NCBI GenBank assembly: GCA_000002435.2
Contig: CM018790.1
Direction: 5' to 3' (one strand)
DNA: 64,000 nucleotides
Source of the DNA: Giardia intestinalis
Lineage: Eukaryota
Shown here: in pieces, positions 3,940-39,784 of the stretch
How positions within the stretch are numbered: the first letter of the stretch is position 1
Layout: the number at the start of each line of letters is the position of its first letter
Made by a program: the position numbers and the translations under genes
Notes under the pieces: generated by a model
What the model saw: the letters and a program-made list of their open reading frames with translations, nothing else
What the model was told of the DNA's origin: nothing
Databases searched by the model: none

Positions 3940-4990
3940 ATCGGTTTGCTAGCCGCGACCCGAGCCAGTCCCGCGGAAGAAGAGCTTTGTGCTTCCTCCG
4001 AGGCAATAGCGGATGCACCGGAGACCCTGAGGCTGGCAGTGGATGCGCCAGTCACTCACCACCCGAGCCGAGCTGGTCTGGACAGACTCACCACGCGACC
4101 CCTACGGATCCCTCGGAGGGCAGGCCTGCCCTCTGGACGCCCGGCTCGAACAACAGTGGACCGAGCTCCTGGCTACGCAGGACAGCGGCGGTCGGGAGTC
4201 CACCACAAGCAGCTGCGCGGTGCCTGACACCTCGACGTGAGACGTGGCATCACAGCAGGCTGCCGAGCGGGACAACCAAGCGGCGAACCGGTCCTGATCG
4301 CTTCTGATGCTTTGGACGATGCCTCGACAGACCGAATCATTCCCCCAAGCGTGCTGTGCGGTGCAGATGGACCAGCCCACACGTCACTGAGCCAGACGCA
4401 CTGCACAGGGTGAGCGCTGACATGATCTCGTGCTGGGTGACGGACCACCTGCAAAAGCGCCCTGCGATCCGTGAGCAGAGGGCCGGACCTCTCCCCGACA
4501 CAACGCATGGGAGTACTCCATCGGCATCCACGAACGCGTACTATGACTCCAAGATGGAGGCGTATGGGGAGCGCACCTCCGACAATAGGGTCGATGATCC
4601 ACGTCATGGGGAGACAAAGAGGCACCCGAGGAACGGGGTAGACACCCGAGGTCGTGGCGTGCGATCCTCGTCGTAGAGCACCAGGGCCACGTGGAGGCCA
4701 GGCTGCTGTGACCGACGGCAGGCCCGGGACAGCAGGTGCTCAATAGCTATCAGGCGATGGTTGACCCCGACGAGCCAGAGGAAGGGGGAACCCTGGAGGC
4801 ACCGCGAGGAGCGGCAGCTTCCAGGGGAGGGGGGCATAGAAGTTCTTCCGCCGGGATCCGAGGACATCCGACTCCCGAACTCTGGATTTGGATTCCAGCC
4901 GATGCAAGGGCGAGAGAGACCCGCTTGCCCAGAGCGGCGGTGGCTCGCACGAGGGGGTTTACTCGGGTAGCAGCCGGCAAACAAATTTCG
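3940..4990 (+). repeat. Truncated, diverged third copy of the GC-rich dispersed repeat found in both arms of the large inverted repeat. The core 4258..4872 is near-identical to 38533..39147; the flanks are only ~70% similar.
   Basis: ORF translations in 4102..4984 are identical to those in 21487..22415 and 38340..39268 up to defined break points. GC-rich (>60%) against ~45% for the surroundings. Direct nucleotide comparison of the flanks shows diverged homology. Confidence 0.7.
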
Positions 4991-6469: not shown

Positions 6470-7372
6470 ATGAATGTACCGACAACCGCAAAGGACTTAC
6501 TTTTGCTATATGCAAAGGAGCCCTGTGCATCCAGTTCGCTGAAAGAGGATGAGTCTGTACCTCAAAATTACCTTTCCAAACGGCACCTGCTCTTCTCTCG
6601 CTTTGACGAAGGAATACAGTTGACCCCTGAAATGTGGTATTCCGTGTGTGCTGAGTGCTTCGCACATACAATAGCAAAAGTGCTTAGCAACCATATTCAA
6701 CGCAGAGGATATGTTCTGGACTTATTTGGGGGTGCTGGAGGGCAGGCCATTGGGTTTGCTTTAGAAGGCCACAGTGTTCATTCCATAGAATACAGCGAAC
6801 AGCATTGCGCACTTATCCACAACAATGCTCGAGTTTACGGGGTCTCACATCTAGTTTTTCCAGTTTGTTGTGATGTATTTACTCAAGCTCTACGCTTTTG
6901 CACTTCTGGGGCAACTCCACAAAAGTATGACTGTGTGGTTCTATCTCCACCGTGGGGAGGTCCTGGATATTGGCGGAACGGTGATTTGGACTTCTGCAAA
7001 TTGAGAATAAATAAGTACAAGGGATCGCAACTTGTCAGCCTTATGTGCAGACTGGTAGATTCAGGAATCAGTAAGAGATTTATTCTCCACCTTCCACGAA
7101 ATACTACTACCCGTTCTATCTATTCTGTTGGTGCACGAGTTGCGCGACATATTTCCAGGGTTGCAATACAGGAGCTGGGTAGTACCAAAGCCGATTTCTT
7201 AACAAGCTCAGTGATAGTATCCGAAATGCAATTAAACGGTCGTGTTAGCTTCCTTGCCGTTTACATTGGTTGTTGGAATAAGAAATTGATCAGGGACATT
7301 GACAACCAAGCAGTCTTGTTCACACCGTCGGACGGCCATAGTAGCAGAGTTCCCTGTGGCCATCTCGTGTGA
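6470..7372 (+). CDS. TGS1: Trimethylguanosine synthase (TGS1-type RNA cap guanine-N2 methyltransferase).
   Basis: SAM-binding motif I VLDLFGGAGGQAIGFA and the TGS1 signature SPPWGGP (VVLSPPWGGPGY). Also a downstream LPRN motif, as in human TGS1. Confidence 0.85.
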   Translation: MNVPTTAKDLLLLYAKEPCASSSLKEDESVPQNYLSKRHLLFSRFDEGIQLTPEMWYSVCAECFAHTIAKVLSNHIQRRGYVLDLFGGAGGQAIGFALEGHSVHSIEYSEQHCALIHNNARVYGVSHLVFPVCCDVFTQALRFCTSGATPQKYDCVVLSPPWGGPGYWRNGDLDFCKLRINKYKGSQLVSLMCRLVDSGISKRFILHLPRNTTTRSIYSVGARVARHISRVAIQELGSTKADFLTSSVIVSEMQLNGRVSFLAVYIGCWNKKLIRDIDNQAVLFTPSDGHSSRVPCGHLV

Positions 7373-8501
7373 AGTTCACAAGCGCATAGTCTTCTAGATC
7401 ATTGTAGCCCTCCTTTTTCAAGCAAAGATCCAATATTTTGTCGAGCTCATAGTAATTGACCATCACCAGGCCACATGCAGATATCTCTTCATCCCAATCG
7501 ATGGTGAGACGAGGGCACGCCAATTGGGCAAAGAAGAGCACATCTTTATGGGGCAACAAATAATGTGGGAGGACTTCACTAAGAGATAGCACCTTTATCG
7601 GTACACAGAGACTGCGTAGCTTATTCAGGAGTGTCTCAAAAACAATTGGAGAGCCTTGCCGGCCCAGTGTCCCGAATACCACGCCAACTCTTTTTCCTGA
7701 GAAGCCTCCTGCAAAAGCTTGCACAGGCCTGTTTAGTAACTCGGTTAATGCCTCTGCACACTCTCTGATAGTTTTCAACCTGCTATTAATCTTACTATGC
7801 GTGTCATACCTAATGCTTTCATACACACCTGTCACAGGAGAGAGCCGGTATGCAGGGAGGTGAGAATTGCTTAGACAAGCTGCCTCGTAGTGAAAGTCGC
7901 CGTCTACAACGCTAACAACAGCGTCTGTTCCAGGCGGAAACTTCTTACAAGTACATCCAAGGATCTCATACTTCGGAAGAGGGCTCTGCTCTTCCCCAAC
8001 AATGTTGATCTTTGACCCTCTGTCGTCCAGAATCGGTTGCACGTGAAGTAAGCATGCAGCAAATTGTGCGGTGGTCACCAAACCAACTGTTTTGTAACTA
8101 TGTGTCCTACACATGTCCATGAGCCCGTCTGCAATCACAGTGGCACTTCCTCTGGTATCAATAACTGGGACATAGATGACATCTACTAGACTGGTTGGAA
8201 CAATCTTTGAATGACCAAAGTGAACAAGTACATCTACTCCCATAAGCATGGAGCCAATATCGTCAATATTGCATGCGCCATAAAGGACATCAGCGAAGAT
8301 AACATACTCTATCGCTACCCCGTTGGCTGCCTTAAGCATTCCTTCAAGGGCATTACAAACTTCTATGGCCTGCTCCATTAAGCCCTCAGGGAACTGTAGC
8401 CCTACTGCATAAAAGCCTCGAGACGTGGTACGACCCTGCAGAACTGACTTTACTTCATCTACTATGCACTCTAAACTAAAGTTCATTTTTAGACAATTCA
8501 T
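7320..8501 (-). CDS. DPH1: Diphthamide biosynthesis protein 1 (2-(3-amino-3-carboxypropyl)histidine synthase, Dph1).
   Basis: Blocks matching Dph1: GLQFPEGL, ADVLYGACNIDD, LVHFGHS, EILGCT, PAYRLSP, GTLGRQGSP, LACPRLTIDWD. Its 3' end overlaps the TGS1 3' end by 53 bp (convergent). Confidence 0.85.
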   Translation of the reverse strand: MNCLKMNFSLECIVDEVKSVLQGRTTSRGFYAVGLQFPEGLMEQAIEVCNALEGMLKAANGVAIEYVIFADVLYGACNIDDIGSMLMGVDVLVHFGHSKIVPTSLVDVIYVPVIDTRGSATVIADGLMDMCRTHSYKTVGLVTTAQFAACLLHVQPILDDRGSKINIVGEEQSPLPKYEILGCTCKKFPPGTDAVVSVVDGDFHYEAACLSNSHLPAYRLSPVTGVYESIRYDTHSKINSRLKTIRECAEALTELLNRPVQAFAGGFSGKRVGVVFGTLGRQGSPIVFETLLNKLRSLCVPIKVLSLSEVLPHYLLPHKDVLFFAQLACPRLTIDWDEEISACGLVMVNYYELDKILDLCLKKEGYNDLEDYALVNFTRDGHRELCYYGRPTV

Positions 8502-8697: not shown

Positions 8698-9147
8698 CTA
8701 AGACAGATGGCCAGGGACGGTTGAAATAAGAGTGAAAAATGTGGTCTCATATTGATTCTGATCGCTTTCCTCCTTAATGGGGAGCTTAAGTGCAATAGCT
8801 ATCTGCACAGCGAGCAAATGCCTGCAAAAAGTGCACATGATACTGAACCGTGAACATAGGTTCTCCTTTGGCAATTTTGTTTGCAGCCGGAGAGGATGGC
8901 AGCAGCTACAGTACCCTTCATCTGGGAGGACAAGGCATATCTGAGCGTGATCCACGACGGTATAGAATACGCTGCCAAACAATCCGCGAGCAGGACGATA
9001 TACAGTTATGTGTTGTGTGGAGTCTAAGAGCATGGCTACATGCTCTAATTCTTCCGGATAAAAGCACTGCAGGTCGGAAAAATCCTGCTCTACTAGATGC
9101 CCGCGGGTAGCAATCCGTTGAAAAATTGCGTCAAGAATCCGATCCAT
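8698..9147 (-). CDS. SWIM-type zinc-finger protein resembling ZSWIM7/Sws1, a homologous-recombination mediator.
   Basis: Motif GYCSCCHP...CTFCRHLLAVQIA, compared with the Sws1/ZSWIM7 signature CxCPxF...CKHLLAV. The track start at 9174 is a TTG; the first ATG is at 9147, preceded by AT-rich sequence. Confidence 0.5.
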   Translation of the reverse strand: MDRILDAIFQRIATRGHLVEQDFSDLQCFYPEELEHVAMLLDSTQHITVYRPARGLFGSVFYTVVDHAQICLVLPDEGYCSCCHPLRLQTKLPKENLCSRFSIMCTFCRHLLAVQIAIALKLPIKEESDQNQYETTFFTLISTVPGHLS

Positions 9148-9281
9148 CAAATTAAATGCGTTTGCGCAAATCAATTTATAAGTTACCCAATTACATTAAT
9201 TGTAGAAGGCTAGCTCTGCGTTAGGATGCTTTACCTATGCATCATGACGTAGTACAGTAGCTCGCAGCGCAGATAGCATTA

Positions 9282-12200
9282 TCACTCTTGCTCATTCTTC
9301 ATTGTTTGAAAGTAGAGTCTGCATATGTCCAAATAGCTTTCGACACACCTCGTTGCTTGAGAATTGCACTCCCCGCACAATCGCATTATGGTCAGATGCT
9401 CCTCACTAAACACGATCAATTTTTGCTTTTTACTGAGGTTGAAAGTGCTTACTACGAAGGAGAGTTGAACACTGGGGTCACAGGTGGGGATGGATAGAAT
9501 AATCGCAAGAAATAGGCGTGCAAACCAGTCGTATTTATAAACACGCCTACTAATGTGATGAAGCAGCCTTACTCCCAGCTTCTGGTGTCGAAGAGTTGGC
9601 AATAAGAAAGAATGACACAATCTAGCATATAGGGCACGGCTATACTCCCTATCAGATACTCCTGATACAGGATACTTGACTCCATAGTCTCGGTAAGTGT
9701 ATCCAAAGAGTGCACAGGCTAAGATCCCCAAAGGAATAGAAGCCTCTCTATCTGCCTTCTGTAAAAGAGGGGTAAGCTCGAGACCCAGGAGCCGAACAAG
9801 GCAATCACTTACCGTTTGGCAATCGTCTTTTATACAATGCAAGATCACAGAGCTGAACAGATAAAATCCTGTCTGTGTGTCAAAGACGGCACAAAACTGG
9901 GCCACTATCTTCACTAGAGTTTCAACGACGTCACAGCGGTAACGCCAATCCGAGTTGATAAAGAATGTGTAGCCGGTATCGGGGGAATCCACACACCGAT
10001 ACTGATAGAATGGACCTGCAATTTCAAATCCTCGTTGCCTTGTGTCTACCTCAGTATATGTTAGTTCTGGAAGAGCACAGTGTGATCTGCTGTCCTCTGA
10101 GGCATCCACAAAACCATATAGACCCGTACCTTTTAGAGCCACATGGGAGGAGAATGATACCGGGGTGATAGAAACATATAAGTCTGGTGTGCATTGAAGA
10201 CAGAACGTTCCAGGCATCTGGTCAGCTCTGTTCTCCGCACTTACTTGCCCATGATGAAAGTGCACTTCTTCAGGCAATTGCAGAATATCGTAGTAAATTT
10301 TAATCAATAGCTTAGCAACCCTCAATAAGAAGCTCTGCGTGTCTGCTTGCACCCTACCATATTTAGTAAATGAGTAAAGAAAAACGATTTTGGCATCTCT
10401 AGTGCATTGAGAGGACATTAGAAGAGATTCCAAGCATTGTAGTAGAATCTCCTTGTTCTCCTGCGTGGTATTACGATTGGAGTATATGTCAGGGAGGGCT
10501 GAGATAAGTGAGTGGAGAGTTGACTGGTTGGAGGCTTTGTTTCGTAATGTACTTGTTATAATATTAATAATTCTGTTCTGATAGTCGCGTGAACACGCCA
10601 CAGTTTCGTACACACCCGGAAGCGTGCGTAGAAGGGAAAGCTCGATGTCTTTATATATCGGCTGAGAAATACATAATGTTGAGGGCTTGAGTAACTTCTT
10701 CAAATGGAATACATGATTCTCGGTGAAGTAACTGAACATTTCAAGTGGTGTCCGCGACTGAACTACGCAGTTTCCTGTTTTACTGCCGTGTAGCTCTAGT
10801 ATGGATGTACAGGGCATGCAATCAGAGAAAGGTGAAGTGAAATCGTTTGCAGACGCAGTATTCTCTAAAACTTGTTTGGTGGTCATCCCTTTAGTCAAGT
10901 TTCTTGCAGATGTGACAGCACACGATGGCTTAGTATAAAAGTTCTCCACTATTGGTTCTTCGGGTATATTAGAGAGGTTTCCGTCCAGTGCATTATTCGA
11001 TGGAGAGCTATTTTGGCTTACCGGATCTGTGTCAGTTGTATCTGATCTGCTAGTTGACGACTGCTTGTGTATATCTTTGTCATCTCCCCGTATGAGTATA
11101 GTAAGCATGCTCTTGGATGACTTGATGTGATTGTGTGGTGAAGGAGGTTGTAAGAGAAGCGGATTCCTCCCCACATACCTATCGGTGCTAATCAATCCAT
11201 CCTTAGATGACGCTTTTGAGCCCTCATAATATTCTAACAAGTTTTTATCTATAGACGACTTATCTAAATTTAACGGCAAAGTAATGGTGCTAGACAATGG
11301 ATCTAGTGTCAGGAGATTGCAAAAAAGATTAAATAACAATCGCAGTAAATAGTTTTCCCTTATGATGATACACTCCTCTTCTGAGATAGAGCACCCATTT
11401 GAGATGCCAGCCAACATGAAGCCTAGGTTCCTGCAGGCATTTTGCTGTACTGCAGGCACAAAACTGGTCACAAGCTTTACAAAAGTAAAGACCAGAGACT
11501 TTACCCTTTTTCGGAAAGTAAATGCCCTGCAAAACAATGGCAAGGCTTCTGCACAGAACACTAAGTTGGGTATATTATCCTTTGAATAAAGCCTATTCCT
11601 CACAAATGCAATGACGTCGTTTTGCATACCCTTAGTTGCCACCACAAATGCTTGTCTCGAGCTTCCAGGTTGGCCGGTTTGCGAGTATCGTTTCATCTCT
11701 GTATTCTTTAAGCAAAACGGCTTAGACTTTCTAGCCTGTAAATGTACCACATTAGTTGATAACGAGTGTGGGGGCAGTCCCAAAATGGTGACTTCTGTGG
11801 CATGAGTGTCCAACGACGGATGATTATTGCAAAGATAGGAGCGAAGAGAAAAGCCTTTATTAGTAGTATTATCAGTAGTATTATCAGTAGTGGATACTGA
11901 CATGCAGGGAGCCACGCCAAGTGACTGGCTAGATGGATTATTTCCAGGATAGTCTAAATACTCATGATACTCGGTCTCTGTCTCTGTCTCACCGCTGTGC
12001 TGAGTGGTTGACGAAATAACACGTTGAGAGGGCAAGGAGATAGAGGGACAGTTTGCGGAGCAAACAGTGTACAAAGCTCCAATTTGCTGAGAATGTTGGG
12101 TGAGTTGAGGGGACACGTCCTGTGTCACATCCTGCATCGTACCTTGTTCTTGCTCAGCAAAAGTTACGTAGGAGCTCTGCCTATATGCTATTTCATTGTT

Positions 12201-13916
12201 TTTCTCTAAACTCTCTGAGCGACTATGCCCCGATTTGGCCGTGTATACATAGAGTATTCGCGCCATATTCAAGATTGCCGCACGCTGGATTCTAGGAGAC
12301 ACTATCGTTGATTCTATGTTTTGATAGCTATATTCTGTTACCGGCTTAATTAGGTTACTAAGTTGGGATTGAGAGTAGATAAACTCAGAAGATATCTGTG
12401 TGTCAACAGACGGATCCAGGAAGCGATGCATATCACAGCAAGTTGTGTCTATTATAGCATCATGCTTCATATTGCTCTGCTGGCAATGCTGACACCTTAT
12501 AGGCTTTTGAAACTCCCACAGCCTCTCGGGTGTAAGGTCAAGACGCTGATAAAATGTCTTAGTTAATTCTAAATTGAGAATGTCCCCAAATTCCTTCAGG
12601 AAGGCGCTGTGCAAGGTGCGGTCAGTAGCGATTCTTCCCATGAGGATGAATAGGGCGTTGCACAGAGCAGGGCTAATACAGTATGAAATAGAGTAATGCA
12701 CCATAACGTCAATCAAATTCAAAAGCACATCTTCTAGCTCTGGAAGAGAGCTTAAGATTTTTTTTTCTTGATGGAAAATTTGGCTTTGGGCCTTAACAAC
12801 TCTTGATGTCTCCACACCATACTTTTCAGACCAATTACTATGAAATGACAATGTGTAACAATCGTTCCAGCTGGCATTGTGTGCTATACTTTGTTCGAGC
12901 TGTTCCATGTGCTCATCATCGTCCTGGAGGCAAGCGCACTCGTAGCGACACCTACATCTCAGGGTTGGTGGGTAATTTTCAGTATGGACACCTTTGGAGA
13001 CAACTCCCCCGAAGAGGGAGTGTATGCAACAATAGATATTGGCCTCACTATCGTATTTAAATGTTAAGTTGCAGAAGATTGCCAAGCAACGACAAAACTG
13101 GAAGAAGATCACCTCACGGAACAGCAGTAAGCCCCAGAGCTTTTGGTCAACTGGTGTATCAGCGATAGATGGGAGTGTGTATAGAACTCTAATTATATTG
13201 ATCATAGTATCATAGCAAGGAGTGCTACGAACTATACACTTTAACAGCGGAAATAGGATATTTCGAACTACATAGTCACGCTGCCCAGCTGACAGCTCTG
13301 GGTTTCGCATGAGTGCCTTCGCCATGTCCTCAAAGTGGAAACAAAGTAGATATTTTAAGAGGGAAAGACGTTCATTCGGTAGCAGCTCTCTAGCTTGTAC
13401 CTTACCGAGTGTCAGTGACCGAAAAATACCATCCATAAAGGGGTCTGCCGGCCCAAGAAAGTCCACTGCTCGAGCATCTCTAGCAGAGTCGTCATAAAAG
13501 TCCTCGTCAATTGGAAATACATTGGAACTAACGGGTGACCCGTTGAGCAAAGTTAATGGAACCACATCCTTCTCAGGAAAAAGTCCCTTAAGAAGTAATC
13601 CACAGCGGGTCTCACCTGTCCGAGTACAAGCCATGAGCCGCAACTGCCCCAGAAGGTGGTTAGATATTTCGTTCATGGTCCCAGCTTGCAAAAAAGAGGG
13701 CAGCCAATATATAGAAAGGATGTTGTGGAGAAACGAACTGGAGTGATAAAGAGAACTGAAGTGACTGAGAGGAGAGCTGATCGCTGGGTGGGGGAGTTCG
13801 TAAGTGCGTTGAAGAAGCTGAGCAGTTTCTTGGGTCATTTCCCCGTAGTCCTGTGTGTCTGGTTCGAGATCCAGAAGCTCACTCTCAGGGCTCAAATCGT
13901 CATCAAAGAAATCCAT
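9282..13916 (-). CDS. Large hypothetical protein (1544 aa) with an acidic N-terminus and no recognised domain.
   Basis: Uninterrupted 4.6-kb ORF with a true ATG at 13916. Contains a 12-bp in-frame tandem duplication at 11864..11887 (TTDNTTDN). Confidence 0.65.
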   Translation of the reverse strand: MDFFDDDLSPESELLDLEPDTQDYGEMTQETAQLLQRTYELPHPAISSPLSHFSSLYHSSSFLHNILSIYWLPSFLQAGTMNEISNHLLGQLRLMACTRTGETRCGLLLKGLFPEKDVVPLTLLNGSPVSSNVFPIDEDFYDDSARDARAVDFLGPADPFMDGIFRSLTLGKVQARELLPNERLSLLKYLLCFHFEDMAKALMRNPELSAGQRDYVVRNILFPLLKCIVRSTPCYDTMINIIRVLYTLPSIADTPVDQKLWGLLLFREVIFFQFCRCLAIFCNLTFKYDSEANIYCCIHSLFGGVVSKGVHTENYPPTLRCRCRYECACLQDDDEHMEQLEQSIAHNASWNDCYTLSFHSNWSEKYGVETSRVVKAQSQIFHQEKKILSSLPELEDVLLNLIDVMVHYSISYCISPALCNALFILMGRIATDRTLHSAFLKEFGDILNLELTKTFYQRLDLTPERLWEFQKPIRCQHCQQSNMKHDAIIDTTCCDMHRFLDPSVDTQISSEFIYSQSQLSNLIKPVTEYSYQNIESTIVSPRIQRAAILNMARILYVYTAKSGHSRSESLEKNNEIAYRQSSYVTFAEQEQGTMQDVTQDVSPQLTQHSQQIGALYTVCSANCPSISLPSQRVISSTTQHSGETETETEYHEYLDYPGNNPSSQSLGVAPCMSVSTTDNTTDNTTNKGFSLRSYLCNNHPSLDTHATEVTILGLPPHSLSTNVVHLQARKSKPFCLKNTEMKRYSQTGQPGSSRQAFVVATKGMQNDVIAFVRNRLYSKDNIPNLVFCAEALPLFCRAFTFRKRVKSLVFTFVKLVTSFVPAVQQNACRNLGFMLAGISNGCSISEEECIIIRENYLLRLLFNLFCNLLTLDPLSSTITLPLNLDKSSIDKNLLEYYEGSKASSKDGLISTDRYVGRNPLLLQPPSPHNHIKSSKSMLTILIRGDDKDIHKQSSTSRSDTTDTDPVSQNSSPSNNALDGNLSNIPEEPIVENFYTKPSCAVTSARNLTKGMTTKQVLENTASANDFTSPFSDCMPCTSILELHGSKTGNCVVQSRTPLEMFSYFTENHVFHLKKLLKPSTLCISQPIYKDIELSLLRTLPGVYETVACSRDYQNRIINIITSTLRNKASNQSTLHSLISALPDIYSNRNTTQENKEILLQCLESLLMSSQCTRDAKIVFLYSFTKYGRVQADTQSFLLRVAKLLIKIYYDILQLPEEVHFHHGQVSAENRADQMPGTFCLQCTPDLYVSITPVSFSSHVALKGTGLYGFVDASEDSRSHCALPELTYTEVDTRQRGFEIAGPFYQYRCVDSPDTGYTFFINSDWRYRCDVVETLVKIVAQFCAVFDTQTGFYLFSSVILHCIKDDCQTVSDCLVRLLGLELTPLLQKADREASIPLGILACALFGYTYRDYGVKYPVSGVSDREYSRALYARLCHSFLLPTLRHQKLGVRLLHHISRRVYKYDWFARLFLAIILSIPTCDPSVQLSFVVSTFNLSKKQKLIVFSEEHLTIMRLCGECNSQATRCVESYLDICRLYFQTMKNEQE

Positions 13917-17093: not shown

Positions 17094-20000
17094 ATGAGTG
17101 ATTCATATATTCCCGTCCTGTACACGTTGCAAAAGACCCAGAAAAGGAAGAAGTACTTAGATGGATTCATTTGTATAACAGGCCGAACACTTCGAGTCTT
17201 CGATGAAAAAAAGCGTTTCTTAGACTCTTACACCATAACTACACGGACTACTGTTGATGAAGACTTCCTTGAGCTTTCAAAGTGCCTTTTACAACTTGAA
17301 GATGAGCATCGAGAGCTTTTACACTCTGCTGCTTCTGCTTCGACGCCCGCCCATTCGCATCGTTCACCTCATCCAGTTCAATCTATATCAAAGCCGTCAA
17401 CAGCAACACGTGTCTCCCATAAGACTCGCCCCACTTGCGCTGCACCCCCTGATATGAAGACTAGTTCATCGCAAATGAACAATTCTTTATCGGTGAAACC
17501 AAAGTTTGATGAAGCAAGTATGTCCATTGAGATACCTCCTAAACCTTCCAAGACTGTCCTGACTGACCAATCTGCTCATCTCCATACTTTTCTTTCTGCA
17601 ATCAAGTCACTTATCTTCTGTTCTGGAAAGGTTACCTTCACACCAGTACGTGAGCTTTTGTCATCATTGATTTTTCAGCCCATCTCCTGCGATCTAGCCG
17701 CTCAATACATATCAACAGATAACTCGTGTGCACGCATACTTTATTATTCATTGGTGGCCACGTGGGCTGAGCTTTTGCTTCCTTTGCTGCAGAGCCTTGG
17801 ACAGGGTGGAGACACTCAACCAAAGAGCAACTCTTACAACATCTCCACTTACAAGAATGCAGTAGTTATGCGACGTGCTAATACTGCCAAAGCTCGACGT
17901 TTACAACTCTCTGAGGCAGAGCGCTTGGTCAAGATGAGGCAACTTGATTCCGTCACCCTTAAGCAGCTCCGAGCAGATGCCTCCTCAAATGTTGAGCGAT
18001 CGGACACATGGAAGTTATCTGCTGGTGAAGCCATTGCATACGCAAAAGCAGATCTTTTTGTGCTCGTGCCCCAATCTTGTTTTGTAAAGTTAAAGGATGG
18101 TAGCCGTGCTTCTTCTGGGTCAAGCTATACATGTTATTTTTTCACCGCTGACACTTATCAACCTACAGCTGAGGAGTGTCAAAATGAGCTTTTCATGGTA
18201 CCGTTAAGTGATGTGGGACATTGGCTTTCTAAACCAGACTCACGGGGAAGCAATTTCGCTAAGGACTATGATAGCTTCGGTGCTGTCCTCGAGAAAGTTG
18301 TGGTATTCCACTATGAAGGTTTTCAAATATCTTACACACTTTTAGATACTCTTAATACTGCATTTAGGACTATAAATGAAAACATTGAATTGTCACCTTA
18401 TTCTAGATGGATGCGTGACTCATTTCTTCGCTTTCTACACGCTTCCCACGGTCCCAATTGGAAAGAACTTCGACTCCTTCACGCCCATCTTTCATTTAAT
18501 AATTACTTTAAGTCTGAATTAGACAGTGACGTGATTAGTATAACCGATACTCCGTCTAAGGATTTATTTGCGGAGATAGTAGGTCACAGTAACTATAAGC
18601 AAAAGCCATACTTTACAAGTCTAAATCAGTTTCAACGTGAGGCTTTTGATCTTGTTATTTCTAGATTAACGGGGAAAGATGTTACTGGAGCGTTTATTGA
18701 CGATACAGGGTATTGTAGTTCTCACCTTTATTTGCTTCGTGGGGTATTTGGTAGTGGAAAATCTCGAGTCCTAACGGCGCTTCTCCTGCTGCTCCTAGAG
18801 GCCCTTCCGGAGGCCACGGACTCTTGGGTCTTCAGGCCGCGCATCCTCGTCGTTGCGAACACAAACGTGGCGGTCGACAACCTCCTCCGGCGCCTCGCCT
18901 CTGCAGCTGCAGGGCTTTCTATTGGAGAGCTTCTTCCAAAGGTCGTCTCCCGGGTTGGGTCGGGGATCACGGCCCCCGAGCTCCACGTTTTCGGCGAGCC
19001 TCTGATCGCCTTCGGCGAGCGCCTCGTCATCTTCACGACCTTTGCGTCTCTCAACCGCCTAACAGAGCTGGTCTCCGACTGCGACTACTTCCCCCTCGTG
19101 ATCGTTGACGAAGCCAGCCAGGTAACGGAGCCCCTCCTCCTTTGCGGGCTTGCAGCCCTGCGTTATCAGGTCGATCTGATGCTCTTGGCGGGAGACAACA
19201 TGCAGCTTCCCCCGGTCGCCGCCACAGCCACCCTAGGAGCATCGACCTTCGAGCGCCTTATCGGCCTAACAGAGGGCAAACATTCTCCGCGGCTTTGTCC
19301 GGCGACGACGCTGTGGGCGCAGTACCGCTGCTGCCGCCCCGTGGCAGATCTAGCAGGCGCCCTATTCTACGGCAGACGCGTTTGCACTATGGGCACAGAA
19401 CATCCGCCTGTCGTCAAGGGCCTCCCGCTCTTATCCTCTGTTCACCTTGGAAGCTCTTTTGACCGAACGGTCCGCGGGAGCAGAGAGAATAGTACAGAAG
19501 CCAAGGCAATTGTTCGCCTGGTCACAGCCCTGGTGCTGGACCACAAGGTACCTCCCTCCGAGATCGGAATTATTACTCCATTCCGGGCACAATCAAGTTA
19601 TCTCGAGGGGCTGTTGCGGCGGGCCCTCTCTGTCTTTAAGACAGTGCATGATGAGAAGAGCCTATTAGATGCAGACGGCGCGGAGCCTTCTGAGCTGACA
19701 GGGGTTGGCAGGGCAGCTGAGGAAGTTCAAAGACAAAATTCCCTAACAGACAATACCATCTTTCGATCATGCAGGACTGGCGCTGTATCCCCCCAAGCTA
19801 TACCTAAACTCTCAACTGTATCTGCAGCCACCGTCGATTCTTTCCAAGGAAGCGAGAAATTGGTGATCATCGTGAGCCTAGTGCAAGCGACGGATGGACA
19901 CTTTATTCGTGAGCCAGAAAGATCCGAGCATATCAATTTCCCTAATAGAGTCAACGTGGCCATCACACGTGCGGTTAGCCATCTAATTGTCTTTCAGAGC

Positions 20001-20420
20001 TATCAATTTAGCGGCGATAATCTATCATCCTATTTGAAGAAACTGACATTGAAAGACCTGTCTCTTAGTAGCACTGTGAGCCCCTGGACTAAACTGCTCG
20101 CATATACAACTGATATCGGCCAGTGCTTCATAGGCATAGCTTCTCTCCTTGAACAACTTGGGGTTAAAGAAGTAGAACAGGGTTTACCATTGTTCTCTGA
20201 ACTGACTAGCGCTCAAAAGGAGGATCCACCCACTGTCAACGAGCCACTCAGAAAGACGGCTGCAGTTACCAGTCCGATTAAGTTTGCATCTTCTCTTTCT
20301 GATCAGCTGCTGATAGACATGATTATAGAATGTGCAAGGGACAGGTTTATAGAAGACAAATGTGTTCTTTCCCAGGCAAAAAGCACAGAGCTGCTGCAAA
20401 TTTTAGGGGGCGAATGGTAA
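17094..20420 (+). CDS. Upf1-like superfamily-1 RNA/DNA helicase (1108 aa) with a ~550-aa N-terminal extension.
   Basis: Walker A GVFGSGKS, motif II DEASQ, VDSFQGSEKLVIIVS, and motif VI RVNVAITRA. The 3' 1660 bp lie inside the inverted-repeat arm. Confidence 0.8.
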   Translation: MSDSYIPVLYTLQKTQKRKKYLDGFICITGRTLRVFDEKKRFLDSYTITTRTTVDEDFLELSKCLLQLEDEHRELLHSAASASTPAHSHRSPHPVQSISKPSTATRVSHKTRPTCAAPPDMKTSSSQMNNSLSVKPKFDEASMSIEIPPKPSKTVLTDQSAHLHTFLSAIKSLIFCSGKVTFTPVRELLSSLIFQPISCDLAAQYISTDNSCARILYYSLVATWAELLLPLLQSLGQGGDTQPKSNSYNISTYKNAVVMRRANTAKARRLQLSEAERLVKMRQLDSVTLKQLRADASSNVERSDTWKLSAGEAIAYAKADLFVLVPQSCFVKLKDGSRASSGSSYTCYFFTADTYQPTAEECQNELFMVPLSDVGHWLSKPDSRGSNFAKDYDSFGAVLEKVVVFHYEGFQISYTLLDTLNTAFRTINENIELSPYSRWMRDSFLRFLHASHGPNWKELRLLHAHLSFNNYFKSELDSDVISITDTPSKDLFAEIVGHSNYKQKPYFTSLNQFQREAFDLVISRLTGKDVTGAFIDDTGYCSSHLYLLRGVFGSGKSRVLTALLLLLLEALPEATDSWVFRPRILVVANTNVAVDNLLRRLASAAAGLSIGELLPKVVSRVGSGITAPELHVFGEPLIAFGERLVIFTTFASLNRLTELVSDCDYFPLVIVDEASQVTEPLLLCGLAALRYQVDLMLLAGDNMQLPPVAATATLGASTFERLIGLTEGKHSPRLCPATTLWAQYRCCRPVADLAGALFYGRRVCTMGTEHPPVVKGLPLLSSVHLGSSFDRTVRGSRENSTEAKAIVRLVTALVLDHKVPPSEIGIITPFRAQSSYLEGLLRRALSVFKTVHDEKSLLDADGAEPSELTGVGRAAEEVQRQNSLTDNTIFRSCRTGAVSPQAIPKLSTVSAATVDSFQGSEKLVIIVSLVQATDGHFIREPERSEHINFPNRVNVAITRAVSHLIVFQSYQFSGDNLSSYLKKLTLKDLSLSSTVSPWTKLLAYTTDIGQCFIGIASLLEQLGVKEVEQGLPLFSELTSAQKEDPPTVNEPLRKTAAVTSPIKFASSLSDQLLIDMIIECARDRFIEDKCVLSQAKSTELLQILGGEW

Positions 20421-20970
20421 TCAGGAATGGACACACGAACAACTCGTTCTATTAGAGGTTTATTATATTGGTTCTTCCACTACATGTGGTTGTTTCAAGC
20501 TGTGTGATATACTCCGTACAATGGCTACCCGTCGTGTTACCTGTGTATTGCAAATAGGTTGTATAAAAATTCTGCGCTTGCACATAATGCATAAACCATG
20601 TTAGTAGTTGTTTCCTTGCTTCACAATGACACTATCGGAAATCGTCTATCTATCCTTAGCCCCAGTACATGGTCTAACTTGCTTCTCTGTATCTTGTTTA
20701 GTAATACCAAGAGCTTCTACGATGATTGGTAGCGTGAGTCCTTATGTCGATATAAGTATATATGCTTGAGAAACCGTCATCAGCTCACCAAGAGGCTAGG
20801 AAAGCTCCAGCGCTTCAACCTAAGCGGTCATCGCCTAATGGAGCCGTCCTACCTGCAAGATAAGGGTTGGAGCAGACGTTACAAATTATGTATAGCGGAA
20901 AACAAGAGCTGTGACCTACTGCTCCTTATGACTAATATTTAATATGATTTTCATATGTCTGCACCGCCGT

Positions 20971-21042
20971 GCGGTCATAGTACAGTGGCTAGTATGCGTG
21001 ACTGTCACTCACGTGACCCGGGTTCGATTCCCGGTGACCGCG
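20971..21042 (+). tRNA. tRNA-Asp (anticodon GTC).
   Basis: Manual fold of the 72-nt sequence. Acceptor stem is 7 bp (gcggtca/tgaccgc). It has U8, A14 and a GG in the D-loop. Anticodon stem is cgtga/tcacg with loop cTGTCac (U33, anticodon GTC, A37). The T-arm is ccggg-ttcgatt-cccgg, and the sequence matches an A-box and a B-box (GGTTCGATTCC). Confidence 0.88.
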
Positions 21043-21484
21043 GCTTTGCTTGGTGCCGGCGCAGACGTCTTCACCGGGTCTTTGGGACCGAGGCTGGTTG
21101 CTCCAGGCTGACGCGGAGCCGTCACTTCTTCCTGGTGTACAAGCGTGTCAATCGATGATTATCCTCTCGCTTGAGCACCCATTTGTCATTCTGGTTTGCC
21201 ATCCAGCACTTGAAGTGATGGGTTAATGAGTTTTCAAACAACATACTTCATTGATCATTGCTAAGAATAGCATATCTTTTTGTATGAAGATAACCGTTCC
21301 TCTGTAGATCTTCAATCTAACAGTTAAAGATGTACTATAAAGACGAGCCTACAAGGTTTCTCATAAGAACATATCTAACAGTCCTTGTTCCTTGCAATAT
21401 GTTGTCTTATGATGTAGTTCACTGATAGTAGATACATTTCACCATCCGATCTTGTCACTTGATAAGTTTAGTACGAATGATTCC

Positions 21485-24400
21485 CCCTATTTACTCTCCA
21501 CTTCACCGGGGTAGGGCTGTCGCCTACTACCTGAGTGATCTCCCATGCGAGCCGCCATCCTGGGCAAGCTTCTCACCCATGCATTAGCTGAGATCCGGAA
21601 TCCGAGAGTCGGATGTCCTCGGATCCCGGCGGAAGAACTTCTATGCCCCCCTCCCCTGGAAGCTGCCGCTCCTCGCGGTGCCTCCAGGGTTCCCCCTTCC
21701 TCTGGCTCGTCGGGGTCAACCATCGCCTGATAGCTATTGAGCACCTGCTGTCCCGGGCCTGCCGTCGGTCACAGCAGCCTGGCCTCCACGTGGCCCTGGT
21801 GCTCTACGACGAGGATCGCACGCCACGACCTCGGGTGTCTACCCCGTTCCTCGGGTGCCTCTTTGTCTCCCCATGACGTGGATCATCGACCCTATTGTCG
21901 GAGGTGCGCTCCCCATACGCCTCCATCTTGGAGTCATAGTACGCGTTCGTGGATGCCGATGGAGTACTCCCATGCGTTGTGTCGGGGAGAGGTCCGGCCC
22001 TCTGCTCACGGATCGCAGGGCGCTTTTGCAGGTGGTCCGTCACCCAGCACGAGATCATGTCAGCGCTCACCCTGTGCAGTGCGTCTGGCTCAGTGACGTG
22101 TGGGCTGGTCCATCTGCACCGCACAGCACACTTGGGGGAATGATTCGGTCTGTCGAGGCATCGTCCAAAGCATCAGAAGCGATCAGGACCGGTTCGCCGC
22201 TTGGTTGTCCCGCTCGGCAGCCGGCACCCGTCTACTCGAGGGTGTCAGGCACTGCCAGCTGCTGCGGCAGACGCCTGGCGGGTGGCCCAGGTCACCGCTC
22301 TTCGGTGTGGGCAGGATCAGTCTGCCTCTGCCAACCAGACACCCCAGGGGCCCCATCTCTTGTCGAGGGATTCACATGGGTCACGTGTGGGTCCATCCCG
22401 GCCAGTGGGCAGTGATTGGTGCCATCACTAGTTTCGGCCCTCGATTGCCCTGGGAGCTCCTTCGAGACTAGTTAGAAAGGAGGCCTCCTGTCCCTCTGTG
22501 CTCCTATACCCAGTGCTGACCGTCGAGCTATAGCGTTTCGCCAGGCCTGTCGCCTCTGTGACTATCCCCGTCGTGTCACTGTCGTCACTATGGAAGCTGA
22601 GTGTGTCGTCGACATGGGCAGTGAGCGGGGCATCTCCTTCAGCTCCTGGTGAGCAGGTTCTGTCTCCCGCAGCACAGAAGAATGCTCAGGACCCCGAGGG
22701 ACCGAGCCCAGGGGTGCAGCGTGGCGCAGCCGGAGGAAGGCCTCGACGCAGCTCCTCGGGACTACCTTGTGGAGCGAATCATGATCGTCCATTGATTGTG
22801 GTCGCCCTGTCTCATTCTTGAGGAAGGACCAGACGGAACCGTACAGAGCACGCGTCCCATCCTATGGGTCGCGCTGATAATCTCGCTGAAGGCCTGTTTA
22901 GGGGCCCCGGAACGCCTGCACCCGGATGGGGGCTTGCCAGCGCAGGTCCAGGCCAGAGGGCCCGGGGACTTCAAGCCCCGTGGACTAGTCGCCCTGGCCG
23001 TCTCTTCGTCGGTGATCTGGTAGGGCCGTCCGTGCTCTCCGATGGCTGAGAGGGTCCGTATCCCTCAGGAGCCAGGCCGTCCTGATCCGGCCCTCTGGAT
23101 AGCAAGGTGCTGGTCGTCGGTGGCGCTGTCAGGGTGCAGCTCCCCCTCGAGGCGAGGCAGAGGCTGCAGGCCGGGCAGTAGGATGGTGAATGCCGCTCCT
23201 CCGCTTCCCCGCTGTGTGAGCGAGGCACGTCTCCTCGGCTCTCACCTGGGGCTCTGCGGGGTGCTAGGTACCTTCCCGTGAGCACGTTCGCACGATGGGT
23301 GCTGAAGGGGATGTCCTTCTCTATTCCTATTACTCCACTCAGTGGCGCCCTGCATCCGGTGTCTGTGCTGCATACGTCTGGACGGCCTCACCGCGGAGGG
23401 TCTTCGCTCAGGACAGGCATGTGCTCTTCCGCTCCTACTAGTTCAACGTTCGCCTGGTGCCACTCCAGCGTAGGGCGCTCCTCTCCATCAGGTTCCTAAG
23501 GTCCTCGTTCTTGGTGTGATACCTGATCTCTCCCCCGTGAGGGGTAGGGTTCACGGTGCACTGGTGTGTGTTCGGAGCGACGCCTCCCTTTTAGAGTTCT
23601 GCAGGTTACACGACCCTCTGGGGACAACCAGCGACTGGGACCCCTGTTTGAGGCAAGGGCTGACCTGGCTCCACCGGGCTGCGAGCAACTCAAGGGCGCT
23701 CTGGTGTTGCTGGTCTCTCAACCGCACAGACTTGGCCTGTCCTGGCAGATAGTTGGGGTCGTCCCTGAGCGCCTCCGAGGAATCTGGGAAGCGCTCCGGT
23801 CCGATGCTTTCTGTCCAGAGCATCGCGACGGGCAACGGTGAGGGCCCGCGTGGGACACCGCACTTGGGCGACAAGGCTCGGTGTGCGTGTGCTGGCACCG
23901 TCTGTCGGTCGCAAAGCTGCAGAAGGAGCAGCAAGAGGAGCCCAAAGCGGGAGAGGGTTCTCCAGACGTGCTGCTCGAGACCCTTTAGAAGTCGAAAGAG
24001 ACATGGCAGGAGACGCAGAAGTGGTCGAGTGGCTCTTCGTGCTGTGGATCGCGTAGGAGGTCCCCAAGGGTGCAGTCTCTTAGTGAACCCGGCGTTCTTG
24101 AGCCAGTTCATGTAGTCAGCGAGTGACCCCTTCAGGGCTAGGTGGTCTCCTAGAGAAACGGTCATTGAGAGCCCTGCCACCATGCAACCGTTCTCTGGCA
24201 CAGGGATGTTCGTTGGGGGGAGGAGAATGTGAGAGCTTCCCTGCTCTCATCTCCTTGCTCTTTCGTTCATCCTACTGGGCGCTTTCTTGGCGCTTCGCTC
24301 CAGAGTCCTATGGACCTTCCTCGGTGGCACCTTCATGGGAGCAGTCGCGGGTCTGTTATTTGTTAAAGGCTGGACGTCGGGGCTATCGGCTCCTTCGTCT

Positions 24401-24575
24401 GGGCTTCTTCTTCCGCCGGAGCTGGACGGCGCCCGATTCTCGGACTCTGGGTTCAGACATCGAACAGGTAAATGATCGAAGACCCCCCTGGTGTAGAAAC
24501 TCGCATAGAATTTGCTCGGACGGCAGCTAACAAACCAATCTCGGTGGACAGAGGTATGTTCATAGGGCGTTTGCC
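21485..24575. repeat. GC-rich ~3.1-kb dispersed-repeat element of unknown class (left-arm copy).
   Basis: Abrupt rise in GC. Many overlapping stop-poor pseudo-ORFs on both strands with no domain. Part of the element recurs at 3940..4990. Confidence 0.65.
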
Positions 24576-24669
24576 TTATAGTCATTATCTGGTCATGTTA
24601 CTTAATAAGGTGCTAGCCCTTCATTTTCAGCTGTGTCATTTGTGCTCAACGCTCTTGCTAACCAACTGA

Positions 24670-27590
24670 CTATGTTGGTAGTTTCACTTAAGGTTAGCCA
24701 GATCGCATAAGCATTAACAAAGAAATGCGTACCAGGAAAAGCAAGCTTAGATAAATGCTAAGCATGTGCCAGTGTTATAGACACAGACTTACGCTACGTG
24801 AGTATAATCGAGTGGTAACAGTCTTGTTAATACGGCATCCACCAGCTCCAAAATTATACTTGTAAGAATGAGATATCTATTCAGTGAGTAATATTTATTT
24901 TTCATACGGAAGAGAATGCAATAACTTTACTAGGACAATGAAAATATGTCTGAAGATGCAAGGGCGCGATTGGCAGAATAGAAGAAGTATATCTATATAA
25001 GACTGCCAACACACCCTTAAACATCCATGCCCTATAGAGATCAAGCAATCCTTTGCTGCTTGCAATGAAGTGGCTGGAACTGCGGTCAGTGACACCAGAC
25101 ATAAAAACGTACCTAGTTGTAGAGGACATAATCAGCTTATTAATAAGGTCATCGTGAACGTAAGTAAAATAGATAAAGCAGCTGTACACAAGTTCTATAA
25201 ATAAATGATGCAGATTAGAAGCGGCTACATATCGATGAAAGAGATAGTTGTCTGAATATGTCAGCAAGCCAAATGTACAGGGCAGTAATAAGTGTCATGA
25301 ATGTAAGAATGCAAATGATGGAGTGGGGAGCATCTGGATGTATAACCCCTAATTAACTCATTAATAAGCGCATAAATAAGATACAACAGGCTTTAATCTA
25401 CAAGCAGTGAAACATCTAGTATGGCAGATAAACTGAAGCTTATAGCGAGACCTAACTCCGTGAAAGTAGTGCACATGGTAAGAAGCAGTGCAGTCTATAG
25501 AATAATGTAACCAGAAACAGCACAATTGATGACATAGAATGTACCTTTCTAGTAATCTATTAAAAGCAGAGTCCCTAAAGGTTCCGTTTATATAGCTAGA
25601 ACAAGACCCAATGATGATTATCGTGTACATTGATATTATAACACCATCTGGCTCATCTGAGTGTTAGTTAGTTGATAGTAAAATGCTCTATCAGCAAATA
25701 CACATGCGAAGTGTAACGTATATCATATCATCGGTGAGTATCGATAGGATAGCAGTCCTAATTATAGAACTAAGGAGTGGCTGATATGGAATACTAGCAA
25801 GTGCGTCACAGGATTGTAATTTGTTACTAGATCAGATAAAGATTGATAGGCCAGCGTATGCAGAAGGGCGCTCTGCATGATGATAGGATGATATGAGAAG
25901 TTCTATGCGAATAATAACCACTCCCTTTTATGTTTGCCATTAGAACCTAGTCAAGGAGTGACAGGCTTCTGGAGTAATTGGCCCTTGCACTCTCTGCAGG
26001 GCATGCTGGGTGATAAGGAGCTTTTTGTGACGTTCAAAGAACTCATCCGGTTATACCTACTTTTCCAGAACCACAACTACTAACTAATAAAAAGGGCCTT
26101 GCGTTTAGTCTTACAATAGGGGATCTTATGCATATAAATTCAGTCTTAGATAGCTAGCTTGATGAATTGATATATGGCAAAACAGTACAAAATTAGCCTG
26201 TTTTTAGATTACTCCACTTCTTGTGAAAAGGCTGATCGATGGTCTGGACAAAGTAATACAAACGTCCCTAAGTTTAAGCCATCATTTGTCCATTATCTCC
26301 TAACGCTCCCATTGTAACTAGGTGACTAAAAGCAGAATCTTCATTATATTGCTATAGATTCATCGCAAGGGATTCGCTAACTTTCTTGCTGGACAAGAGC
26401 AGACTCACGCCTCTCCACTGACTCTTTTCCACCATGAACTGATAATAACGTCCTCTCTCTGAGACGTGTGAAGCAGATACTATAGACGCTCAGCCAAGAT
26501 ACTAATCACTATAGTTGTAGATGCATCAAAACTTATGGTAGAGACGGGAATATTATTCACATAGACCCTAAACGCTATACGAATGCCTTGTAAGTTAGTA
26601 TTTTGCGGAAACAGATAAGCGTAGCTTCCAGATCCAAAGTTACGCGCGGACAAGTTATGCTCCCAACACCTGAACTCTAGCATCCATTCCTATGAGTTTT
26701 TCTTCCCAATAACGTCTACCTTATGGGCTCAAAGCTGCAAGTAGTGTCCTTGTCATTGAAAGAAAGATGAACCGGGATAATATAGAAGATCGTGCCATAG
26801 AATACAGCCTCCGAGGATTCGTGTGCCGACGCTCTATAATGCTTGCAGATAACGACAACATCCTTAATGACGGGATACTCCATTGTAAACCTAAAACTAA
26901 AACATAAGATAATATTAGAACAGCAACTTCAAGAAAGACAGTTCAATATGTTCATCTGACTATAAGAAGCTTGGTGATCACCTGCAAGACTGATATGCGG
27001 AATGAGTATGGACACTCAATTCTACTCTTGCAGCTAAATATAACCACCAATCTACTGCCGAGTTCATGCTTCTCAATGAGGTTGTAATTCGATGCATGAC
27101 CGCCATATACCTTCGTTGTCAATGCAGAATAAAACTGTAGGGCTGGCATAGAAATTTATTATGTGTTGTAGAACAGCAAAGTTGGGAGGCGCAGCAGCGA
27201 TACTATATACTGTTAGATAACGTTACAGTAAAACTTCAAAGCAGCTTCTTCTAAGGAAAGAAGACACACAGAATACCGCTGAGAGCATTACTATACCACT
27301 TGGGTTAAGTTTAGTTAGATAGATACAGTCACGTTGTTGGCTCCACTTAGGAAGAGGATAGAGAATTCTGCTAGCAAGCTTGCGAAGCCTATGCTGCTGA
27401 AGGGAGCTTCCAACAACTTGCAGAGCCGCCCCAAGAACGGCCGGAAGGAGATTGGAAGCGACTAGCCACAGTGATCTTGGCGGGCCAAATTTACTTCAGT
27501 TGGGTAGGATGTGGAGGATTCTTTTAGCAGTGCAGATGTCCATAAGAGGTAGCTACAAAGCTGAGGATAAAGCAAGAACCCCAAATAGTA
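24670..27590. other. AT-rich ~2.9-kb non-coding tract (left-arm copy), lying between the GC-rich element and the HCMP 3' fragment.
   Basis: No ORF longer than 121 aa on any frame. Mirrored exactly at 33165..36085. Confidence 0.5.
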
Positions 27591-27591
27591 T

Positions 27592-27834
27592 TCAATTCAA
27601 CGGTGTAGTGATAGATGCAGTAGTGGGAATACGCTTCCGGCTAAGAGCAACGTGCTTCGCCCCATAGGGCTGCGTGCGTCTATACAGGAACCACCACAGG
27701 AGAAAGCCGACCACCGACCCAACGAGGAGAACCGCAGCCACGGACACTCCGGCTATCATGGCTGTCTTCCTTGTCGAGCTCGGGGCTGGAGCTGGAGCTG
27801 GAGTCGGGATGATGCTCGGGAGCGCATCAAAGGA
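27592..27834 (-). pseudogene. Inverted duplicate of the HCMP 3' end (C-terminal TM helix plus cytoplasmic tail) lacking the gene body. It has 3 Pro-Ala units, where the intact gene has 4.
   Basis: Translation YSFDALPSIIPTPAPAPAPSSTRKTAMIAGVSVAAVLLVGSVVGFLLWWFLYRRTQPYGAKHVALSRKRIPTTASITTPLN equals the HCMP C-terminus apart from a 6-bp indel. Upstream sequence is unrelated. Confidence 0.7.
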
Positions 27835-29301: not shown

Positions 29302-29659
29302 GCTCGAGGCTCGACACACAAATCTGGACTACCTACTTCCTTTGCAAAAATCGATAAAAACGTCATAAACGCTGTAAAATTGAAATGTAGTGTAAGCAAA
29401 GGTATAAGGGTTGATGGCTATAAATCGAGCAATTCTATGCAGCATACCGTAGGGAGAATAACATGATGGCCTGGGCGATGTAAATCATGGGTTTGATTAT
29501 AACGGTTTACAATTTTGAAGAAAGCTTCGGAATCGTTTCTTGCAGGTAAGTGGTTCTGATTAGAATAGGTATGATTGTTGTGTATAGCCTGTAAACAAAA
29601 CCTCTACGCCTGTATTTTGTTAATTTTTATCCTATTATTTCGCAGGTTCATATATTTAA

Positions 29660-33163: not shown

Positions 33164-33164
33164 A

Positions 33165-36085: not shown

Positions 36086-36179
36086 TCAGTTGGTTAGCAA
36101 GAGCGTTGAGCACAAATGACACAGCTGAAAATGAAGGGCTAGCACCTTATTAAGTAACATGACCAGATAATGACTATAA

Positions 36180-39100: not shown

Positions 39101-39270
39101 GGAGGGGGGCATAGAAGTTCTTCCGCCGGGATCCGAGGACATCCGACTCTCGGATTCCGGATCTCAGCTAATGCATGGGTGAGAAGCTTGCCCAGGATGG
39201 CGGCTCGCATGGGAGATCACTCAGGTAGTAGGCGACAGCCCTACCCCGGTGAAGTGGAGAGTAAATAGGG
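36180..39270. repeat. GC-rich dispersed-repeat element, right-arm copy.
   Basis: Mirror of 21485..24575. Same orientation as the partial copy at 3940..4990. Confidence 0.65.
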
Positions 39271-39712
39271 GGAATCATTCGTACTAAACTTATCAAGTGA
39301 CAAGATCGGATGGTGAAATGTATCTACTATCAGTGAACTACATCATAAGACAACATATTGCAAGGAACAAGGACTGTTAGATATGTTCTTATGAGAAACC
39401 TTGTAGGCTCGTCTTTATAGTACATCTTTAACTGTTAGATTGAAGATCTACAGAGGAACGGTTATCTTCATACAAAAAGATATGCTATTCTTAGCAATGA
39501 TCAATGAAGTATGTTGTTTGAAAACTCATTAACCCATCACTTCAAGTGCTGGATGGCAAACCAGAATGACAAATGGGTGCTCAAGCGAGAGGATAATCAT
39601 CGATTGACACGCTTGTACACCAGGAAGAAGTGACGGCTCCGCGTCAGCCTGGAGCAACCAGCCTCGGTCCCAAAGACCCGGTGAAGACGTCTGCGCCGGC
39701 ACCAAGCAAAGC

Positions 39713-39784
39713 CGCGGTCACCGGGAATCGAACCCGGGTCACGTGAGTGACAGTCACGCATACTAGCCACTGTACTATGACCGC
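39713..39784 (-). tRNA. tRNA-Asp (GTC), second copy within the right repeat arm.
   Basis: Exact reverse complement of 20971..21042. Confidence 0.88.

Follow-up and report, generated by a model that had tools for sequence, protein, structure and literature searches.

Does a short open reading frame (ORF) with a SWIM-like pattern of cysteines and histidines, situated in a 64,000-nt stretch of the genome of Giardia duodenalis (assemblage A, WB; below, the window), encode a member of the Shu2/SWS1 family? An earlier note on this DNA had proposed a protein of the Sws1/ZSWIM7 type. The ORF occupies positions 8698-9147 on the minus strand and consists of 149 codons followed by a TAG stop; the note had counted 150 residues and given no strand. 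Its product is 100% identical to the public protein GL50803_27024 (GL50803_0027024), also of 149 residues and labelled "hypothetical protein". We conclude, with a probability of about 0.8, that GL50803_27024 is a divergent Giardia member of the Shu2/SWS1 (Sws1, ZSWIM7) family. The profile and the predicted fold of this protein are closer to ZSWIM7 and Shu2 than to any other protein, and the residues C80, C82, C108 and H110 form a SWIM site CxC..CxH.

The Sws1-like ORF is a real gene, since it is conserved in orthologues, in gene order and in the pattern of codon substitutions. An intact orthologous ORF was observed in nine genomes or contigs, G. muris included. This family of nine comprises five sequences of the G. 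duodenalis clade, the sequence of G. muris, and three GC-rich Giardia-like relatives. The four other sequences of the G. duodenalis clade are 75-85% identical to the window protein. The pairwise ratios of nonsynonymous to synonymous substitution rates (dN/dS) of the five orthologues are 0.04-0.18, with synonymous sites near saturation; purifying selection on the ORF is strong. An exhaustive search by profile, covering 1.84 billion representatives, produced three more distant full-length relatives (E from 4e-13 to 9e-5), namely GMRT_13389 of G. muris and two proteins from GC-rich Giardia-like contigs. A second profile search added a fourth one, P0010, again from a GC-rich Giardia-like contig. 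The window protein has about 33% full-length identity to GMRT_13389 and to the three GC-rich relatives. A 328-residue tandem-repeat protein (P0008, E 6e-9 in the exhaustive hidden Markov model (HMM) search) has five stretches matching "DEG...CC" and was rejected as a low-complexity or repeat artefact.

All orthologues share the ATG start (MDRILD...). A longer, TTG-initiated frame (start at 9174, 158 residues) appears in the mechanical list of ORFs; we set this start aside, given the ATG of the orthologues and the 149 residues of the public annotation.

One more explanation is that the ORF is not a gene at all, and that its cysteines and histidines are arranged in this way by chance. Indeed, six matches to the bare pattern CxC-x(6-30)-CxH turn up when the window is translated in all six frames, and thus the motif alone is weak evidence. 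However, chance does not account for an intact orthologous ORF in nine genomes or contigs, nor for the low dN/dS with saturated synonymous sites, and we consider the probability of a chance ORF to be negligible.

The strings quoted in the earlier note are indeed present in the product: Y79-C80-S-C82-C-H-P and C105-T-F-C108-R-H110-L-L-A113-V. The motif has the form C80-x-C82-x25-C108-x-H110, and its four ligands are invariant in nine of nine family members and in 71 of 71 aligned ZSWIM7 sequences. The signature of the Shu2/SWS1 family is CXC...Xn...CXHXXA, where the alanine is a family-specific extension (PMC6316741). This alanine (A113) is found in the window protein and in seven of the nine family members. 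The extended pattern CxC..CxHxxA occurs only once in the window, at the Sws1-like ORF. The spacer between CxC and CxH has 25 residues in all five sequences of the G. duodenalis clade, 8 in G. muris, 10-14 in the other relatives and 15 in ZSWIM7. Thus the check that the note had suggested, maintenance of the cysteines and histidines in orthologues, came out in favour of its proposal as regards the ligands, with the loop length varying (25 versus 8-14). The coding sequence and the parts of its product are as follows.

8698-9147, minus strand: Sws1/ZSWIM7-like coding sequence GL50803_27024, defined by translation, by the match to the public protein and by the dN/dS of the five orthologues.
8911-9147, minus strand: residues 1-79, three N-terminal helices and beta strands up to the first zinc ligand; predicted local distance difference test (pLDDT) 83-94 in the model described below.
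8902-8910, minus strand: C80-S-C82, first two predicted zinc ligands (CxC), invariant in the nine family members and the 71 ZSWIM7 sequences.
8827-8901, minus strand: residues 83-107, loop of 25 residues between CxC and CxH, by count of the spacing; pLDDT below 50 for residues 86-104.
8809-8826, minus strand: C108-R-H110-L-L-A113, last two predicted zinc ligands and the family alanine (CxHxxA); C108 and H110 invariant.
8701-8808, minus strand: residues 114-149, remainder of the SWIM helix, strand 125-127 and C-terminal helix 130-143, according to the model.

Conserved positions are found outside the ligands as well. D42, P52 and V64 do not vary in any of the 80 aligned sequences (nine from the Giardia family and 71 ZSWIM7) and belong to a stretch common to both groups, which reads LLDSTQHITVYRPARG..FYTV in Giardia and LVDRQSITLISSPSGR..YQV in ZSWIM7. 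A119 and E134 are conserved in the Giardia family. The loop 83-107 contains additional cysteines, of which C83 and C98 are invariant in the G. duodenalis clade and C105 is present in four of its five sequences.

The assignment to ZSWIM7 follows from comparison of profiles. A profile made of Giardia sequences only, run against 5.8 billion proteins, had just two outside matches, both to lizard ZSWIM7 (E 0.02 and 0.05); no other zinc-finger family was reached by the profile searches, whereas placement in an unrelated one would, according to the note, have refuted its proposal. Alignment of the Giardia family with a single ZSWIM7 sequence by hhalign has 96.5% probability, and with a ZSWIM7 alignment of 12 species 97.1% (E 5.5e-11, 109 columns). 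The match is colinear, with residues 3-126 of 149 corresponding to residues 11-121 of 140 in ZSWIM7. Its score of 64.4 should be compared with 12.9 +/- 2.9 (maximum 27.5) in 100 column shuffles of the query. The SWIM half alone (37 columns) scores 48.7, with 96.6% probability. In the reverse direction, a vertebrate ZSWIM7 HMM run against 1,556 ORF segments of the window and the fetched loci ranked the ORFs of the relatives first (E 2.6e-6, 3.4e-6 and 0.0077). No further Pfam family was found in the window protein at E<=0.05, and it is a small stand-alone protein. Weak Pfam hits to Zn_ribbon_PRDM4 (E 0.064) and Methyltransf_23 (E 0.17) were treated as chance. Searches of PDB sequences with the protein, two Giardia profiles and a ZSWIM7 profile produced nothing relevant, only fragments of ribosomal uL5 and designed repeat proteins at E>0.008.

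The predicted fold points in the same direction. The AlphaFold2 model was built from an alignment of 80 rows, nine from the Giardia family and 71 of ZSWIM7, with no Shu2 sequence and no templates. It has pLDDT 81.6 and a predicted template modelling score of 0.77; pLDDT is below 50 only in the loop 86-104 and in the last three residues. Residues 1-79 form helices 2-15, 20-29 and 34-42 and strands 47-50, 61-66 and 69-74. This agrees with the Shu2-type fold, where helices pack against a beta-sheet that embeds the SWIM site, an arrangement distinct from other zinc fingers. The top Foldseek matches are Shu2 (6dex_B) and Shu2 of S. cerevisiae (5xyn_D) with probability 0.97-0.98, all others being at 0.16 or below. 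Because the alignment contained no Shu2 and no templates were used, this match adds information to the sequence comparison. Thus the structural check suggested in the note, together with the Giardia-only profile, hhalign and the reverse HMM search, supports the Sws1/ZSWIM7-type identity that it had proposed.

Several observations weigh against this assignment. The Pfam SWIM model (PF04434), against which the note had recommended a search, does not match the window protein even at E<=10; the P15 orthologue (17.0 bits) and P0006 (15.3 bits) remain below its gathering threshold of 19.6 bits. The same model matches 12 of 12 vertebrate ZSWIM7 controls, with 28.8 bits at best. It misses the window protein because its 38 positions cannot span the 25-residue loop; the failure lies with the model rather than with an absent ligand. 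The "invariant" alanine of the family is replaced by threonine in two orthologues of the G. duodenalis clade, P0003 and P0004. With the ZSWIM7 HMM, the G. duodenalis copies score no better than chance (E 0.25-2.9), and therefore their link to ZSWIM7 is transitive, via the relatives with shorter loops. AlphaFold with an alignment of the five close orthologues gave an unusable model (pLDDT 40). Since 71 of the 80 rows of the second alignment are ZSWIM7, the fold match is not fully independent of the sequence assignment. Finally, the hhalign score is owed mostly to the SWIM half; taken alone, the N-terminal half reaches 16.1, a value within what its shuffles give (11.1 +/- 2.8, maximum 20.0).

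The last point bears on the most serious rival explanation, that GL50803_27024 is a SWIM zinc-finger protein of the Giardia lineage which shares with ZSWIM7 the generic SWIM core only and has some other role, such as adaptor, ubiquitin-ligase substrate receptor similar to ZSWIM8, or nucleic-acid binder. Since the N-terminal half by itself shows only weak homology, we retain this explanation, as an unlikely one. The N-terminal half does align, weakly and colinearly, to residues 12-79 of ZSWIM7.

Another possibility is a remnant of a Mutator-like (MULE) or FAR1-type transposase, whose C-terminal SWIM finger has survived in the form of a small domesticated ORF. MULE transposases often have a SWIM finger at their C-terminus, and the surroundings of the locus contain repeated segments, listed below. 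On the other hand, the Sws1-like gene is single-copy in the window and outside the repeats, it is syntenic in the four other contigs of the G. duodenalis clade and strongly constrained, and Pfam finds no transposase, WRKY or MULE domain in it at E<=10. In sequence as in fold it is matched best by ZSWIM7 and Shu2 and not by transposases. The single-copy syntenic conservation and the absence of a transposase domain make this origin so improbable that we exclude it.

If GL50803_27024 belongs to the Shu2/SWS1 family, whose members assist the loading of recombinases on DNA in yeast and animals, what would it do? Members of this family always pair with Rad51 paralogues (PMC6316741), and in the mouse, filaments of RAD51 as well as of DMC1 need SWS1-SWSAP1 as a mediator of their assembly (PMC6180034). 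By analogy, we infer a role of recombination mediator and a partner of the Rad51-paralogue type. As in other family members, the four ligands would hold a zinc ion fixing the core of beta-sheet and helix, and the protein would have no enzymatic activity of its own. It may be an obligate partner of one or more very divergent Rad51-paralogue subunits with the RecA fold. No RecA-fold ORF was seen among the ten window ORFs scanned against Pfam, and no Giardia proteome was searched for a partner. The resulting Shu-type complex would bind single-stranded DNA or recombinase filaments, stabilise them against removal, and in this way could promote homologous recombination, both where replication forks are damaged and during any exchange of a meiotic kind. 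Two paralogues of Dmc1, but no Rad51, are reported for Giardia (Ramesh et al. 2005 and later work); the client filament would therefore be that of Dmc1A/Dmc1B.

The loop of the G. duodenalis clade is situated where Shu2 has its Shu1-binding insertion, and thus this 25-residue, cysteine-rich segment is most simply, though speculatively, read as a lineage-specific element of partner contact. Taken together, these considerations lead to a picture which we offer tentatively, as rather doubtful in its entirety: a minimal Shu-type mediator built around Dmc1 only, without Rad51, where the 25-residue insertion with three cysteines would be either a further metal site or a surface, particular to the lineage, for docking of a partner too divergent to be recognised as a Rad51 paralogue, and a counterpart of the Shu2 insertion that grips Shu1. 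Were this Dmc1-only system real, the protein would be a handle for the missing recombinase-loading machinery of diplomonads, and also for testing whether it acts during the nuclear exchange associated with encystation.

The Sws1-like gene is followed by a diphthamide-synthesis (DPH) gene and a gene of a TGS1-type cap methyltransferase. The neighbourhood contains the following features.

6470-7372, plus strand: TGS1-like methyltransferase gene.
7320-8501, minus strand: diphthamide-synthesis gene.
9148-9281, minus strand: upstream intergenic region of 134 nt, in which an A/T-rich stretch (TTATAAATTG...CATTTAATTTG) immediately precedes the ATG.
9282-13916, minus strand: ORF of 1,544 residues directly upstream of the Sws1-like gene, no Pfam domain.

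The 134-nt region with its A/T-rich stretch is presumably a short promoter of the Giardia type, a reading that rests on general knowledge of Giardia promoters. No Giardia polyadenylation signal AGTRAAY was seen in the 196-nt spacer 3' of the stop codon. The TGS1-like and diphthamide-synthesis genes are convergent, and their 3' ends overlap by 53 nt (7320-7372); the same overlap is called in other contigs of the G. duodenalis clade. The 1,544-residue ORF is 63-87% identical across the contigs of this clade and adjoins the Sws1-like gene only there, not being adjacent to it in G. muris.

The gene order is the same in all four other contigs of the G. duodenalis clade: MDH (where the contig extends that far), the large ORF, the Sws1-like gene, DPH, TGS1. 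A different order was seen in the examined contigs of G. muris and of two GC-rich relatives, with the Sws1-like gene head-to-head with the gene of a CCT (Cpn60_TCP1) subunit. The divergent pairs have the following positions.

4403-6396 of contig L002 (G. muris): Sws1-like gene and CCT subunit gene.
4114-6465 of contig L001: the same pair.
3557-5908 of contig L004: the same pair.

KTI12 or DnaJ genes are found near the pair in these three contigs. No CCT homologue was found in the 64-kb window. Since the gene is paired with CCT in G. muris and the GC-rich contigs and flanked by the 1,544-residue ORF and DPH in G. duodenalis, the locus has been rearranged on the G. duodenalis branch.

Further along the window there are several repeated segments and genes associated with them.

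4255-4887, 21593-22225 and 38530-38829: three copies of a segment of about 630 nt, 99% identity.
17094-20420, plus strand: ORF of 1,108 residues with a ZGRF1-like N-terminal domain and AAA_11/AAA_12 (Upf1/Sen1-type) helicase domains.
18761-27807 and 32948-41994: arms of a perfect inverted repeat, 9,047 nt each, 100% complementary, with a spacer of 5,140 nt.
28213-29319, minus strand: Mec-17 tubulin acetyltransferase gene in the spacer of the repeat.
29660-33163: VSP gene in the spacer (PF03302, 356 bits).
40335-41888, minus strand: 5'-truncated copy of the 3' part of the ZGRF1-like helicase gene, in the right arm.

The structure that the earlier note had placed about 10 kb from the ORF is this inverted repeat, 9.6 kb from the gene. 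The hinted connection with the Sws1-like gene has no support, and we rejected a functional link, the repeat being a mere neighbour. The absolute identity over 9 kb suggests a very recent duplication or gene conversion, or else an artefact of assembly. The left arm starts inside the ZGRF1-like helicase gene (at 18761), and for this reason the right arm holds the 5'-truncated copy. ZGRF1-type helicases are themselves factors of recombination repair. The last 216 nt or so of the VSP gene extend into the right arm. One copy of the 630-nt segment is situated upstream of the gene cluster, and each arm of the repeat holds another; the segment overlaps ORFs of 150 and 186 residues.

The finding is already known in kind and very probably in instance. 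In UniProt, the orthologues of P15 and G. muris already carry the name "SWIM-type domain-containing protein". Godin et al. 2015 are said to state in their abstract that Giardia lamblia, an early-branching lineage, possesses an orthologue of the SWS1 family. In a literature search that did not reach Godin et al. 2015, we found no paper relevantly joining Giardia with SWS1, Shu2, ZSWIM7 or the Shu complex, and ZSWIM7, SWSAP1 and RAD51 paralogues are not among the entries in the supplements of a 2025 survey of the DNA damage response. The Shu complex has been described as conserved in all eukaryotic lineages (PMC6821187), and the repertoire of the Giardia DNA damage response is among the smallest in eukaryotes (PMC12134460).

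Thus GL50803_27024 is one expected accessory factor of the Giardia recombination toolkit and no surprise. The sexual cycle of Giardia is still debated. A retained and strongly selected Sws1/ZSWIM7 homologue implies that a mediator step of the Rad51-paralogue type has been kept in this reduced system, and the protein is a small and tractable bait for its partner or partners. In practice, a "hypothetical protein" receives a better annotation, and its expanded loop has been noticed; conceptually, little is gained.

Known proteins with SWIM domains differ in how closely they resemble GL50803_27024. ZSWIM8, MULE/FAR1 transposases and bacterial SWIM-helicase proteins are large and multidomain, their similarity is confined to the SWIM core, and none of them was retrieved by the Giardia profile from the 5.8 billion proteins. 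Sws1 of fission yeast (with Rlp1-Rdl1) and SWS-1 of C. elegans (with RIP-1/RFS-1) are covered by the same family definition, that is CxC..CxHxxA and pairing with Rad51 paralogues (PMC6316741); they are likened here by description only.

Shu2 of budding yeasts (5XYN chain D, 6DEX chain B), a subunit of Csm2-Psy3-Shu1-Shu2, is 14-19% identical to the Giardia protein and had no detectable match in the PDB sequence searches made with this protein and its profiles. It is longer, about 200-220 residues, and has a folded insertion domain of 59 residues, whereas the Giardia loop has 25 residues and is predicted with low confidence. In yeast this insertion, situated between CxC and CxH, contacts Shu1, and mutation of the SWIM ligands abolishes the function of Shu2 (PMC5727457).

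The closest known system is vertebrate ZSWIM7 (SWS1), which pairs with the Rad51 paralogue SWSAP1 and with SPIDR; counterparts of SWSAP1 or SPIDR are not known from Giardia. Identity to the Giardia protein is only about 20%, and the loop is 15 residues long in ZSWIM7 as opposed to 25 residues, rich in cysteine, in G. duodenalis. The PxF that follows CxC in ZSWIM7 is changed to C-H/R-P-L in G. duodenalis, whereas the relatives P0006 and P0009 keep P-Y-F or P-Y-Q. On the other hand, both proteins stand alone, with about 140-150 residues, both have CxC..CxHxxA, and their architecture is colinear: N-terminal helices, then beta strands, then YCSC...C(K/R)HLLAV.
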